DNA of 64,000 nt from Thermofilaceae archaeon (GTDB lineage Archaea; Thermoproteota; Thermoprotei; Thermofilales; Thermofilaceae): assembly GCA_038861545.1 (NCBI GenBank), contig JAWCCZ010000001.1:448001-512000 (forward strand), written 5' to 3'. Position 1 is the stretch's first letter, and every line of letters begins with the position of its first letter. The notes below the pieces were generated by a model, which was given only the letters and a program-made list of their open reading frames with translations, ran no database searches and had not been told where the DNA came from. The translations under genes were made by a program, and so were the position numbers. Positions 61,149 to 63,999 of the stretch are shown piece by piece.

Positions 61149-61514
61149 TTAACTGGCACTTTTCACTGAATCCTCAATCTGCTTAGTGTATTTGTCGAGT
61201 AAGTAGTATATTAGACCTAGATTCGGGTTACTCTTAGATACGAGGCATATTACGCCGTTTTTCAGTTCTCTCAGCATAACGATTCTGCCATCTTCTAACT
61301 CAACAACCACGTCCCTAACACCAGTGCTGAAATACTGTCTAAAAGCCTCTCCCACGCCTGCTACTACAGCTGCTCCAAGCGCTGCTACTATGTCATCGAT
61401 ATCTGACGGATTTGAAGCAGCTATGGTAACCCCATCAAGAGTTGCTAGCACCGCGCGCTCCAGCTCACCCATACTTCTTTTTACCAGTTCCCCGAGAACT
61501 GTTTCAACACTCAT
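61149..61514 (-). CDS. Roadblock/LC7 (MglB-like) protein
   Basis: AVLAT.DG.TIA, helix AALGAA, beta strands VVVELEDG.IV, NLGLI signature. Confidence 0.88.
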   Translation of the reverse strand: MSVETVLGELVKRSMGELERAVLATLDGVTIAASNPSDIDDIVAALGAAVVAGVGEAFRQYFSTGVRDVVVELEDGRIVMLRELKNGVICLVSKSNPNLGLIYYLLDKYTKQIEDSVKSAS

Positions 61515-61837
61515 CTGAGCACCACCCTGTACACCCCGTCTTCCTGAGGCGTTACTTGTAACTCGTTTTCCCCTATACGTACTCTAAGCTCGCTAAGTCC
61601 TCCAGCTTCCTCGAAAACCTTTACTGCTTGAACAGCGTACACGGCTAACATTTTATCCACTTGCCCCTGCGCTTCCACCACTAGCCCCCTCTTATCGACC
61701 AGTGCCGCCCACTTATACCGCCCTTTATCCTTTTTCTTCCGCGACTTTAAGATAACTATAGCCAGCACCACTGCTACAACCACGATAGCGGCTGCAGTAG
61801 CTGTAAGCATGAGCATGGAGCCTGTTAACGGCATCAT
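61511..61837 (-). CDS. Membrane-anchored roadblock-like protein
   Basis: N-terminal TM and KSRKKK, then AALVDKRGLVVEA, a helix and three strands (roadblock topology); ATGA overlap with the roadblock gene. Confidence 0.65.
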   Translation of the reverse strand: MMPLTGSMLMLTATAAAIVVVAVVLAIVILKSRKKKDKGRYKWAALVDKRGLVVEAQGQVDKMLAVYAVQAVKVFEEAGGLSELRVRIGENELQVTPQEDGVYRVVLR

Positions 61838-61954
61838 CGAAAATGATTACAAACTCAGTAATTTAAAGATGTTCCTTAAAGTATTACCCCAGTGTTACGA
61901 ACCAGTGCATTAAATATAAAACCCACCAGTAAAGAGATTATCGCGGGGAAAAGG

Positions 61955-62488
61955 TTGCAGGACACGGAGACCGTGCTCATCGCCGGCCCTTTTGGAGCTG
62001 GGAAGACTACATTCATACGCACTGTCAGCGGTAAGTCGATTACTACGGACAGGGAGCTAAGTGGCATAGGCGTTAGCGCTGGAGAAGTCAAGCTAAAGGG
62101 CTCTACAACCGTTTTCGCTGACATGGGTGTCGCTGAGCTGGATGGGAGGAAGCTCCTCCTCTACGGGGCTCCCGGTCAAGTTCGTTTTAGCTTCACGGTT
62201 AAAGGGCTGGCGTCACGCTGTAAGTATCTAGTTTTCCTCGTGGACACAACAGATGAAGCAGCTGTTATGAGGAGTAGGCTGTATTATGAGCGACTCATAA
62301 AACCCTATTTTGATCGTTTTACAAGTAAGGTCTTCGCACTAAATAAGAGAGATACATCGAAGCTTCCAATCATGAGGGTGTTGGAGTTATTCGGATCCAT
62401 GAATTGCCCTTTTGTCGAGCTTGTTGCGCTGGATAAGGGCTCTTGTCTTACTGCGTTAAGGATTCTTCTAGGAGGTGAAGGGGTATAA
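61955..62488 (+). CDS. MglA/CvnD-like small GTPase
   Basis: G1 GPFGAGKTT, G2 STTVFADMG, G3 YGAPGQVRF, G4 NKRD. Start taken as TTG 61955, downstream of the TATA near 61910. Confidence 0.9.
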   Translation: MQDTETVLIAGPFGAGKTTFIRTVSGKSITTDRELSGIGVSAGEVKLKGSTTVFADMGVAELDGRKLLLYGAPGQVRFSFTVKGLASRCKYLVFLVDTTDEAAVMRSRLYYERLIKPYFDRFTSKVFALNKRDTSKLPIMRVLELFGSMNCPFVELVALDKGSCLTALRILLGGEGV

Positions 62489-62496
62489 TAGAGAGG

Positions 62497-62832
62497 TTGA
62501 AGAATATTTTCAGAGAGAGACGGGGAAAGCGGTATTCTTTTCCCACCACTGTGGTGGCAGGAGATTATGAAGTTATGGGTTCCGCTTTAACTATTGAGGA
62601 GGTAAGCGAGGACATGGAGCTGGCAGATGCATTAAAGCCCTTTGCAGCGATGAGTTCAGATTCGCCTGTACTGGTGATAGCGATAGGCAAGGGTTGGAAG
62701 GTTAAGCTAGCGGTGAATAAAGGTCTAGTGGAGATCGTGGAAGTAGAGGGAATAAACGCTGATAAGGCGATTTTCATGCGGGGGCCAGCTATTGTTCTTC
62801 CGTTCCCGGCTAAGGCTTTACGGCGGAAATAA
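62497..62832 (+). CDS. Hypothetical protein, possibly PATAN/DUF2226-like
   Basis: 8 bp after the GTPase with GAGG upstream; helix-strand pattern LADAL...VLVI...VKLAVNKGLV...G..A. Confidence 0.55.
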   Translation: MKNIFRERRGKRYSFPTTVVAGDYEVMGSALTIEEVSEDMELADALKPFAAMSSDSPVLVIAIGKGWKVKLAVNKGLVEIVEVEGINADKAIFMRGPAIVLPFPAKALRRK

Positions 62833-63586
62833 GCGTAAGGAGGGGTCCTCTTCTGAACCTAACGGATCCAAACCTCTCCCCTTCAATATAACTTCTTACT
62901 AACTCAGCCGACCAGGTGCCGGCCGTGCTCCCTAAAGCCACAAGAAACGGGGTTATCGGGTTAGCCCCTTCCCACTCGAGCGGTGCTATCATTATAAACT
63001 GGCCTCCCGGTGAAAGTGCAGCGGAAGCCCTGGAGATCAACGGCATCGGCTCATACAGCCAGTTTGAGGGTGAGGCGATGATGATGGAACCTATTGGCTC
63101 GCTCAAATGCCTTAGGAAGCTTGCATAATCCCCTTTAACTAAGAGGTAGTTAGAATTCCCTATACCCCTTAACCTTTCCTCTGCTATTGCGAGGTTGATG
63201 TCTGAGGGGTCTACCGCTATAAGCCTGCTCCACAGCTTGGCTGCATACTCCAAGCTCACAGCCGGTCCGCAGTGCATGTCTACTAAAGCCCCCTCCCTCC
63301 TCCTCGAGGCTGATAACCCGCCCCACAAAAGGTCGGTGAACTCCTTGGATTGCATCAAGGCTTCCGAGAACAATGCAAAGTCCGGCGTATCCCAGGGTTT
63401 CTCACCCCGTATTAGAGGAACTCTTTCAGCGAGGAATTTGAAAACTTTAAGTAGGTAAGGATCTGGGAGCCCCTCCCCCGCTTTAACTGAAGCCGTAATC
63501 TGTCGGACACTCTCAGATTCGCGGATCCCAGCTGTTGATTTAACAAGATCCCTTAATGCCTCGTAAACGGATCTCCAAGCGCTCAT
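62810..63586 (-). CDS. Divergent class I SAM-dependent methyltransferase-fold protein
   Basis: LVDMHCGPA (degenerate motif I), AVDPS..NL..A, KGD, LSPGG.F. Confidence 0.72.
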   Translation of the reverse strand: MSAWRSVYEALRDLVKSTAGIRESESVRQITASVKAGEGLPDPYLLKVFKFLAERVPLIRGEKPWDTPDFALFSEALMQSKEFTDLLWGGLSASRRREGALVDMHCGPAVSLEYAAKLWSRLIAVDPSDINLAIAEERLRGIGNSNYLLVKGDYASFLRHLSEPIGSIIIASPSNWLYEPMPLISRASAALSPGGQFIMIAPLEWEGANPITPFLVALGSTAGTWSAELVRSYIEGERFGSVRFRRGPLLTLISAVKP

Positions 63587-63999
63587 CCAGCCACCTCTTC
63601 GAACCTTATAATCCCTCTTCTCTCTAAAGCTAAGATTCCGCTAAACCTTTCTCGCATAGTAACTGGGTCTTGCGCCAGAACCGCGTCAACAAGCCTCCAA
63701 CCGTCTAAGCCAGCGGCCCAATCTATGATCCTGGGCGATATCCAGGGTAAACGGTTTACATACTCCTTGAAAAGTGCTACGGCACCAGTGTCGACTTTCA
63801 CTACAAGTTTCCTTGATTTGAATGCTAACTCGAAAAGTCTTACCATAAAGGGGGAAGGTTGAGTGCTGATGCTAGCGTCGAGGAGCAGCGTGGAAAGCAG
63901 TATCGTGCCAAGGTCTGCTGTAGGCACTTTAGCCAAGCCTTTAAGGTACCCTCTAGCCCACTCAACGGCTGTTTTCGCCAAATCGAGATTCGAAAGCTC
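63583..63999 (-). CDS. Hypothetical protein with C-terminal wHTH-like segment (probably 5'-truncated by window edge)
   Basis: Frame stays open to the window end (..ELSNLDLAKT..); LDGWRLV...LERRGIIRF; ATGA overlap with the methyltransferase gene. Confidence 0.6.
   Translation of the reverse strand, partial: ELSNLDLAKTAVEWARGYLKGLAKVPTADLGTILLSTLLLDASISTQPSPFMVRLFELAFKSRKLVVKVDTGAVALFKEYVNRLPWISPRIIDWAAGLDGWRLVDAVLAQDPVTMRERFSGILALERRGIIRFEEVAG

Follow-up and report, generated by a model that had tools for sequence, protein, structure and literature searches.

At positions 61149 to 63999 of the window, i.e. the whole stretch of 64,000 nucleotides analysed here from a Thermofilaceae archaeon, six tightly packed genes had been proposed, in an initial annotation, to form a single switch of an MglA-type GTPase, two roadblocks, a PATAN-like protein, a methyltransferase and a winged-helix (wHTH) protein, in which membrane tethering and a SAM-binding protein may supply input and output. 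This raises the question of whether the six genes act as one system and what such a system would control. Six ORFs are indeed found at this place, with gaps of −4, 54, 8, −23 and −4 nt, and the cluster runs past the window edge as had been announced, a Rab-like GTPase, a third roadblock and a second methyltransferase being read beyond 64000. The six genes are real, since all the ORFs are under purifying selection (dN/dS of 0.05-0.19, a rough estimate against a genome of the same genus). However, they make up two separable modules and not one: module 1 (61149-62488) contains the MglA-type GTPase, a roadblock and a roadblock-like protein that carries a membrane anchor, and module 2 (62810 onward) a degenerate methyltransferase, a 261-aa protein and, upstream, the off-window Rab-like GTPase. 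An NCBIfam profile search matched no specific family, and a sigma-70 promoter and terminator scan, which is not suited to archaea, remained at chance level. The features are:

38929..49164, strand not assigned, type IV pilus locus, putative output of module 1 (Pfam T2SSF, T2SSE, Pilin_N)
within 38929..49164, strand not assigned, five accessory or minor-pilin-like genes of the pilus locus
44560-46368, minus strand, TadC of the pilus locus (Pfam profiles of the locus)
46519-48612, plus strand, VirB11 ATPase of the pilus locus (Pfam profiles of the locus)
48709-49164, plus strand, pilin of the pilus locus (Pfam profiles of the locus)
61149..61514, minus strand, Roadblock/LC7 (MglB-like) protein, 121 aa, module 1 (PF03259 over cut-off, MglA neighbourhood)
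61511..61837, minus strand, TM helix, basic stretch and divergent roadblock-like domain, 108 aa, module 1 (hydropathy, hhalign, weak Pfam match)
61892..62488, plus strand, MglA-family small GTPase, Group 4/5 type by motifs, module 1 (motif alignment, PF03029, structure-profile matches)
62497..62832, plus strand, small alpha/beta protein, 111 aa, genus-restricted accessory (dN/dS, homologs in genus only)
62810..63586, minus strand, class I methyltransferase-fold protein, 258 aa, degenerate motif I, module 2 (PF08241, alignment A2)
63583..64000, minus strand, 3' part of the 261-aa protein, module 2, with its start 368 nt past the edge (L001:7583-8368; invariant residues, AF2, structural matches)
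L001:8341-8874, minus strand, off-window Rab-like GTPase, 177 aa (PF00071 E 6e-41, alignment A4)
L001:8880-9251, minus strand, off-window third roadblock (TSDG motif)
L001:9365-12043, minus strand, off-window second methyltransferase and zinc protein, 112-aa ORF and 337-aa HTH regulator

The GTPase of module 1 is present in single copy and its G1-G4 motifs are intact, in agreement with the first reading (GPFGAGKT / STTV / GAPGQ.RF / NKRD, alignment A3), the G3 being GAPGQ here and GTPGQ in most relatives. It matches PF03029 with an E of 4e-7, and its profile matches the structures of Thermus MglA, Myxococcus MglA and Arf/Arl with E of about 1e-12 to 1e-13. In G2, T72-T73 are invariant and there is no Arg, so that, unlike the Myxococcus and Thermus MglA, the protein has neither the intrinsic arginine finger of Group 1 nor its TVPGQ. 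The Thr-Thr G2 without arginine finger, the G[T/A]PGQ G3, the [NT]KxD G4 and the Asp-Gly MglBs are those of the Group 4/5 systems surveyed by Wuichet and Sogaard-Andersen (PMC4316618), and the GTPase is assigned to these groups by its motifs, the MglA tree being made up of relatives only. Because the Group 1 arginine finger is missing, its GTPase chemistry is predicted to differ from that of the enzymes studied in Myxococcus and Thermus. The resemblance of G3 to the conservon CvnD/MglA type, noted initially, stands for MglA and falls for CvnD (Group 2 MglA), a candidate identity rejected on G4 (NKRD, not NxFD) and G5 (VALD, not DAR). The actinobacterial conservon (CvnA-D) also combines a GTPase and a roadblock in a membrane-associated design, whereas neither a CvnA kinase nor CvnC was recognised here among the ORFs flanking module 1 in the 20-kb locus, as the earlier remark on a lacking kinase had it.

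The 61149 protein matches Pfam PF03259 (Robl_LC7) with 31.9 bits and E 1.1e-7 (cut-off 23), and its gene adjoins MglA in most relatives. Both soluble roadblocks, this one (TLDG) and the off-window third one (TSDG), hold the Asp-Gly pair that marks the MglBs coupled to Group 2-5 MglA (PMC4316618). Of the two roadblock-fold genes first annotated, 61511 matches the Pfam roadblock only weakly (14.4 bits, E 0.03, below the cut-off of 23). Its product presents one N-terminal TM helix, then a basic stretch and a divergent roadblock-like domain, and represents a short version of the TM-(coiled-coil)-roadblock-like family, whose members elsewhere have 216-290 aa. The family occurs in 26 MglA loci (hydropathy 2.3-3.7) and also in those of Aigarchaeota. 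With hhalign, the long form aligned with roadblocks at P 4e-4 (probability 34%) and with the short form at P 3e-3; matches of the short form to a self-built HMM are circular and were set aside, the hhalign values alone being counted. The first reading of an MglA-type GTPase coupled to roadblocks with a putative membrane tether is supported, and so is the link to the pilus genes, for which the case is now better than could be known from the sequence of the window.

The type IV pilus locus 12 kb upstream, already suspected as a target, is separated from module 1 here by a glycerol operon and a helicase. Across five Thermofilales families, 11 genomes keep pilus genes within 0-13 kb of module 1, with differing gene orders (G000, G001, G012, G017 and G019 of f1, G030 and G039 of f2, G025 and G032 of f4, G034 of f6, G035 of f8). 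In G025, a pilus accessory gene, the TM-roadblock, the roadblock and MglA are all on the same strand, the first gap being about 100 bp, and in one Aigarchaeota family the TM-roadblock, roadblock and MglA genes are interleaved with those of the pilus ATPase and TadC in 5/5 genomes. As a control, 71 ORFs over 65 kb were considered: if two generic paralog matches are set aside, no neighbours from outside the module except pilus genes have homologs that stay close to MglA in other families. Thermofilum and four more genera of the family do not show the link, and where their genomes are complete, the orthologous pilus ATPase and MglA are 170-360 kb apart. It was also seen in 0/7 loci of the Calditenuaceae family. 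As the linked lineages share ancestry, one old linkage may have been retained. In the survey of PMC4316618, Group 4 has no conserved neighbours, in contrast with the conserved TM-roadblock and pilus locus found here.

In Myxococcus, pili are activated by MglA (PMC7668184). In archaea, roadblock proteins are found repeatedly at pilus loci (PMC4858521), and pilus retraction takes place in the absence of PilT (PMC11178785). Judging by synteny, motifs and predicted folds, we infer that module 1 would work as the bacterial MglA/MglB do, the GTPase cycling between GDP and GTP. The soluble roadblock 61149, and probably also the third roadblock beyond the window, would serve as MglA GAP or binding platform, GAP activity being quite probable. 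The TM-anchored protein would pair with them and hold the switch at the membrane, a tethering that we regard as likely. MglA-GTP may then gate where or when the linked pilus machine (ATPase and TadC) assembles or retracts pili, an output that gene order makes moderately likely. As in Myxococcus xanthus and Thermus thermophilus (PMC2910265, PMC7668184, PMC9481161), an MglA-family GTPase is encoded with roadblocks and tied to type IV pili, but here a subunit appears membrane-anchored, the archaeal pilus lacks PilT, the pilus link is known from gene position alone, and no RomR, RomX or SgmX-like effector was identified. The balance is tipped slightly toward an MglA/MglB-like switch controlling archaeal pili. 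In the literature searched, which took in neither subscription journals nor the supplement of PMC4858521, we found no paper that connects archaeal pili with a small GTPase, and nothing on Thermofilum with MglA and a roadblock. The cassette interleaved with the pilus ATPase and TadC genes offers a specific candidate for such a regulator, and its proteins, being thermostable, could be purified for tests.

The small 62497 protein had been called PATAN-like, a domain occasional for Groups 1/5 (PMC4316618). The label is not sustained: neither PF14332 (PATAN) nor PF09987 (DUF2226) matched it, and its ESM Atlas model (pLDDT 0.44) gave no PATAN neighbour and no usable match, the strand/helix pattern being compatible with PATAN by eye only. 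The gene (dN/dS of about 0.19) is missing from other MglA loci, and the protein has 3 homologs, all of the same genus and 81-95% identical. For the 62810 protein, the methyltransferase fold is confirmed: it scores 22.6 bits against PF08241 (cut-off 21.2), its profile matches PDB methyltransferases at E 6e-11 with an alignment that included two intact paralogs, and the fold is Rossmann-like. Motif I is degenerate (DMHCGPA here) and not conserved as glycine-rich, its loop having no glycine at all in 8 orthologs from Thermofilum and genus g4. The subunit would probably be a ligand-binding or scaffold protein and not an essential enzyme.

These data bear on the initial model of a single kinase-free, conservon-like MglA switch with SAM-binding and wHTH proteins as input and output and a PATAN partner. 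MglA and the methyltransferase do stand tail-to-tail in 9 genomes (genera g1, g9 and g20). However, in seven genomes of the Thermofilum group the methyltransferase operon and MglA are 127-162 kb apart, an independent occurrence that had been named beforehand as refuting the model, and the operon is not supported as input or output of MglA. It overlaps the Rab-like GTPase gene on the same strand, was not found where MglA persists in families f2, f4 and Aigarchaeota, has lost motif I in Thermofilum, and the 62497 gene is genus-restricted. The model is largely refuted by synteny and we consider it very improbable.

The wHTH end of the second operon protein was correctly recognised; in full, this protein has 261 aa and comprises a CxxC..HxxH zinc finger (7-70; C13, C16, H46 and H49 invariant), a longin-like domain (73-187) and a winged helix (187-259). 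The AF2 model of the protein has a pLDDT of 88.6. As modelled, the longin-like domain has a sheet of four strands, and its first hairpin is not followed by a helix. For the isolated domain, the top 26 structural matches and all 17 at Z>=5 are longins, the best with Z 6.1, rmsd 3.3 and 97 aligned residues, so the model leans toward a longin fold, with Z-scores below 8. Foldseek returned no significant match for the full and middle-domain models, and in ESM Atlas only Promethearchaeota clusters were matched. In alignment A6 the domain has no conserved GP motif or arginine, D92 alone being nearly invariant, and thus differs from the GAP longins NPRL2, FLCN and SMCR8 (PMC12290439). Against GATOR1 NPRL2 (8fw5_C), Z is 6.6 for the wHTH and 5.2 for the longin. 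For DENN, the longin (uDENN-like) part alone matches 6ekk_A (Z 4.3), and the zinc finger and wHTH fill the remaining chain, which leaves no room for cDENN/dDENN.

This longin and wHTH architecture, recalling NPRL2, would fit a general nutrient- or ligand-sensing switch. Its output would be transcriptional or metabolic, by way of the winged helix, of V4R proteins or of a neighbouring regulator, and closeness to the pilus genes would reflect co-regulation only. V4R proteins lie inside or beside the module in G034, G032 and genus g9, and an HTH regulator and micropeptide head the island. Against this, the best wHTH match is a peptide-binding RRE (Z 7.2), so that DNA binding is not implied, the longin-like domain lacks the GP motif and arginine, and the Aigarchaeota genes are interleaved with pilus genes. 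Such a sensor is quite improbable. In the preferred reading of module 2, the 261-aa protein would be a dedicated partner of the Rab-like GTPase, as platform or exchange/activating factor, a regulator role for which the chances seem even.

The Rab-like GTPase has Glu in place of the catalytic Gln (D[L/I]GGE in 23/23 rows of alignment A4) and no terminal cysteine prenylation motif, two differences from eukaryotic Rabs. The methyltransferase and zinc-protein genes share its strand and overlap; the zinc protein follows it in 21 of the 24 genomes having both, and the methyltransferase follows the zinc protein in 24 genomes. In T. pendens, the zinc-protein partner has 268 aa (ABL77489.1), and an Arg of the zinc finger (R62 here) is conserved. 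It belongs to the family reported in 2016 as single copy in two Thermofilum species (PMC4915359), a report without partners, in which gene neighbourhood is not described and operon, roadblock and methyltransferase are unmentioned; a fixed longin-like neighbour common to Asgard archaea is now found. Of 29 Asgard loci with the zinc domain, 13 have a Ras-family GTPase next to it, whereas some 200 kb of flanking DNA contains a single GTPase that is not adjacent; a 2.1-kb near-Thermofilales contig (G413:C129) was left out as probable mis-binning. The tree of Rab-like GTPases does not settle how the Thermofilales and Asgard copies are related, and no transfer direction is claimed. The Asgard operon of a LAMTOR1-like roadblock, Rab-like GTPase and DENN protein (bioRxiv 10.1101/2020.10.19.343400) likewise unites a roadblock, such a GTPase and a longin-related partner, but here the partner is a zinc finger, shortened longin and wHTH followed by a methyltransferase-fold gene, in a host outside Asgard. 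With Ragulator-Rag and GATOR1 of eukaryotes there is analogy only, in the membrane-tethered roadblock platform and the NPRL2-like architecture, both GTPases here being single-domain (about 177 aa) without the fused C-terminal roadblock of Rag.

The two modules might still form one hub in which both GTPases share the roadblocks and the zinc/methyltransferase pair and jointly control pili, the Thermofilum split being only a rearrangement within a pathway that still functions as a unit. Three genera from two families (g1, g9, g20) have the modules side by side, in G034 a single series beside pilus genes contains MglA, a roadblock, a zinc/methyltransferase pair and a degenerate form of Rab, the third roadblock adjoins Rab here and MglA in Thermofilum, and a pilus gene neighbours Rab in G007 and G035. 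However, in f2, f4 and Aigarchaeota the MglA module is linked to pilus genes, yet neither a Rab-like GTPase nor a complete zinc protein was found there, and module 2 occurs in family f5, where a single-protein search detected no MglA. We consider the hub unlikely.

It is possible, though doubtful, that TACK archaea outside Asgard use a membrane-tethered MglA/roadblock switch to control the type IV pilus motor directly and that Thermofilales have, in addition, a Rab-like GTPase with an Asgard-shared longin-domain cognate regulator. If true, the former would be the first case of archaeal pili controlled by a small GTPase, and the latter a prokaryotic Rab-longin pair of the kind used by eukaryotic Rab GEFs and GAPs. 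With the fixed longin-like neighbour, pre-eukaryotic regulation of Rab-like switches becomes testable on proteins of cultured T. pendens. In one homolog, P0068, a Folliculin_C-like domain (weak match) is joined to the same zinc finger.

The MglA-type GTPase probably starts at TTG 61955 and has 177 aa, since its same-genus ortholog is 182 aa long, starting five codons upstream of this TTG, and an AT-rich TATA-like box falls within the 198-aa frame.

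All six closely spaced ORFs at the end of the window were confirmed in its sequence, and each is under purifying selection relative to the same-genus genome G001 (rough dN/dS 0.05-0.19), in agreement with the initial annotation of six packed genes. Reading past position 64000, as that annotation had proposed, altered the picture. The last ORF (63583 onward) has a full length of 261 aa, and the gene for a Rab-like GTPase (Pfam Ras, E 6e-41) precedes it on that strand. Further upstream in the same orientation, the cluster goes on with a third roadblock and another methyltransferase, this one with its motif I intact, as well as a small zinc protein, a 112-aa ORF and an HTH regulator. 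The MglA-type GTPase (61892), the Rab-like GTPase, the roadblocks, the 261-aa protein and the methyltransferase 62810 are single-copy in the host genome, all at this locus. Relatives include Thermofilum pendens (G014; ortholog ABL77489.1) and 'Thermofilaceae archaeon' proteins, which places the host in Thermofilaceae. Elsewhere in the window, a glycerol kinase/glycerol-3-phosphate dehydrogenase-like operon (56407-61135, plus strand) lies between a helicase and the roadblock genes, a placement seen in this genus only, and a RuBisCO-like large subunit gene was read at 18193-19614 (minus strand), both labelled by eye.

We surveyed synteny in 41 genomes of Thermofilales, the order of the host and its close relatives. 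The Rab-like gene and the 261-aa zinc protein were both found in 24 genomes, and in 21 of these the second directly follows the first; the methyltransferase comes next after the zinc protein in 24 genomes. This operon adjoins MglA in only nine genomes, from three genera; the two are 127-162 kb apart in seven Thermofilum-group genomes, and in families f2 and f4, where MglA is present, neither a Rab-like nor a zinc protein was found. Across a sample of 301 genomes from the phylum, only Thermofilales yielded the full zinc protein, the Rab-like query matched there and in one distant genome only, and MglA was found in 45 genomes. Synteny and separate occurrence together argue that the methyltransferase 62810 and the wHTH-ended 261-aa protein belong to the Rab-like GTPase (module 2), and not to a single MglA switch as first proposed; the distance between operon and MglA in the Thermofilum group is the independence that the initial annotation had named as refuting its model.

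Variants of module 2 were also observed. The third roadblock is followed by another zinc-protein/methyltransferase pair, its motif I intact (L001:9365-10703, minus strand, in the extended host locus), and in G034 such a pair separates MglA from a degenerate Rab (L037:5599-6980). Outside Thermofilales, a divergent small GTPase, a 136-aa zinc-finger/wHTH protein and a 319-aa methyltransferase-like gene (L239:7319-9233, G258:C26) keep the module 2 order without the longin-like domain. Family f5 (G026, G033; L139, L140, L145) has three Rab-like GTPases per genome, apart from the zinc-protein/methyltransferase operon; MglA was not found there with a single-protein query. About 4 kb beyond the window edge lies a 51-aa ORF (L001:12078-12233, minus strand) whose product has a hydrophobic N-terminal segment and ends in a proline-rich tail; 34 nt downstream of it begins the gene of the 337-aa HTH regulator heading the island. 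In G024 a homolog of this regulator comes before an operon of zinc protein, methyltransferase and roadblock, so it may act as input to module 2.

The 261-aa protein has invariant C13, C16, H46 and H49 in the alignment, and AF2 modelled it with confidence (pLDDT 88.6). The C-terminal part, residues 187-259, resembles winged helices, with an RRE as the best match (Z 7.2) and a GATOR1 chain at Z 6.6. Folded alone, the middle domain reached a pLDDT of 94.6, and longins (SRX, AP sigma/mu, TRAPP, VAMP7, GATOR1 and a Lokiarchaeal longin) filled its top 26 structural ranks (best Z 6.1). As scores are moderate and one helix and one strand of the longin are missing, the modelled domain is termed longin-like; neither an arginine nor a GP motif is conserved in its alignment. 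The zinc finger, in which D56 and R62 are conserved, was found in 106 of 151 Asgard genomes. Among the top 29 Asgard loci, several from close kin, a Ras-family GTPase is adjacent in 13 and a methyltransferase in 5, and the control, about 200 kb of wider flank, held one non-adjacent GTPase. In Atabeyarchaeia, full-length relatives stand directly behind a Rab-like gene as in the host, an arrangement recalling the Asgard roadblock-Rab-DENN operon (bioRxiv 10.1101/2020.10.19.343400). Glu replaces the catalytic Gln of the Rab-like GTPase in 23 of 23 aligned rows, a pattern compatible with dependence on a partner in trans. Module 2 is read as a switch built on the Rab-like GTPase, with the longin-like protein as its putative regulator.

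The zinc finger also occurs in other settings. In family f9 (L186-L191), a stand-alone 100-aa finger lies between HerA-like ATPase and Dph2-like genes beside a topoisomerase (labels by eye), with no GTPase within 1.5 kb. Small zinc-finger(+wHTH) genes adjoin V4R-like genes in Thermofilaceae (L127, L196, L197). In other archaea fusions join the finger to a RadA/Rad51 ATPase (P0101) or to a weakly matching Folliculin_C-like domain (P0068), or place it after a longin-like domain (P0077, by eye). A 2.1-kb contig of an Asgard genome (L203, G413:C129) with a near-Thermofilales Rab/zinc/methyltransferase trio is probably mis-binned.

The methyltransferase fold of the 62810 protein (METHYLTRANSFERASE) was clear in profile searches. 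Its motif I is partial in the host, and the loop glycines are lost in Thermofilum, where the gene is nonetheless retained; the protein therefore seems more likely to act as a scaffold or ligand binder than as an essential enzyme. The second methyltransferase is a distant relative of it (E 6e-5) and has further paralogs, which stand alone.

Module 1 comprises the 61892 GTPase, the roadblock 61149 and the TM-anchored roadblock-like 61511. The aligned GTPase motifs are GPFGAGKT, STTV (two threonines, without arginine finger), GAPGQ and NKRD. By the motif criteria dividing MglA GTPases into groups (PMC4316618), it falls within Groups 2-5; NKRD as G4 rules out Group 3 and Group 2 (conservon, NxFD), which leaves Group 4 or 5, and the suggested comparison with CvnD fails. 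An Asp-Gly pair typical of MglBs of Group 2-5 MglA is present in 61149 and the off-window roadblock. The 61511 gene represents a shortened type of the TM-(coiled-coil)-roadblock-like gene that adjoins MglA in 26 Thermofilales loci and also present at Aigarchaeota MglA loci; the roadblock fold of this family is weakly supported (hhalign P 4e-4). The neighbouring 62497 protein is genuine, with three close homologs only, and its gene is missing from other MglA loci. It had been called PATAN-like and matched neither PATAN nor DUF2226 profiles.

The proposed link of the GTPase module to the pilus genes upstream is supported by gene position in other genomes.

38929-49164, type IV pilus locus (TadC, VirB11 ATPase and pilin)

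In 11 genomes from five families, orthologs of the pilus genes are located within 0-13 kb of the GTPase module. Their arrangement varies: divergent at about 120 bp (G030, G039), on the same strand and about 100 bp ahead of TM-roadblock/roadblock/MglA (G025), or, in genus g9, right behind the third roadblock. When 71 ORFs across 65 kb at the cluster were searched for homologs near MglA in other families, only the pilus genes and two generic paralog matches, the module itself aside, stayed near MglA. Outside Thermofilales, in an Aigarchaeota family, the module genes are interleaved with ATPase and TadC genes in all five fetched genomes; three have the entire trio between ATPase and TadC, and two the roadblock/TM-roadblock pair, with MglA directly beside the ATPase. 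The link is absent from Thermofilum, four other genera of the family and seven Calditenuaceae-family loci. As the pilus-linked lineages are related, the association is best read as a retained linkage and not as a series of independent events. That archaeal pilus loci contain roadblocks was noted by Makarova et al. (PMC4858521), whose main text mentions no GTPase other than an FtsZ-like one.

By analogy with MglA/MglB, the roadblocks would form a platform, anchored to the membrane through the TM subunit, that switches MglA, and MglA-GTP would gate the pilus motor, a reading we regard as somewhat probable. That module 2 feeds the same pilus as module 1 in some lineages appears unlikely. The kinds of component are already known; their archaeal combination is not described in the literature that could be searched.

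Three lineages carry V4R-type proteins, one with an ACT-like N-terminus, within or beside the MglA/roadblock module (L037:2447-5632, L050:11934-12452, L063:4647-5468), and these are candidate ligand sensors; the host has three V4R-type genes, all away from the module. Pilus ATPase frames of about 1100 aa (L268:3448-6735, G025:C1:104675-108067) probably hold inteins.
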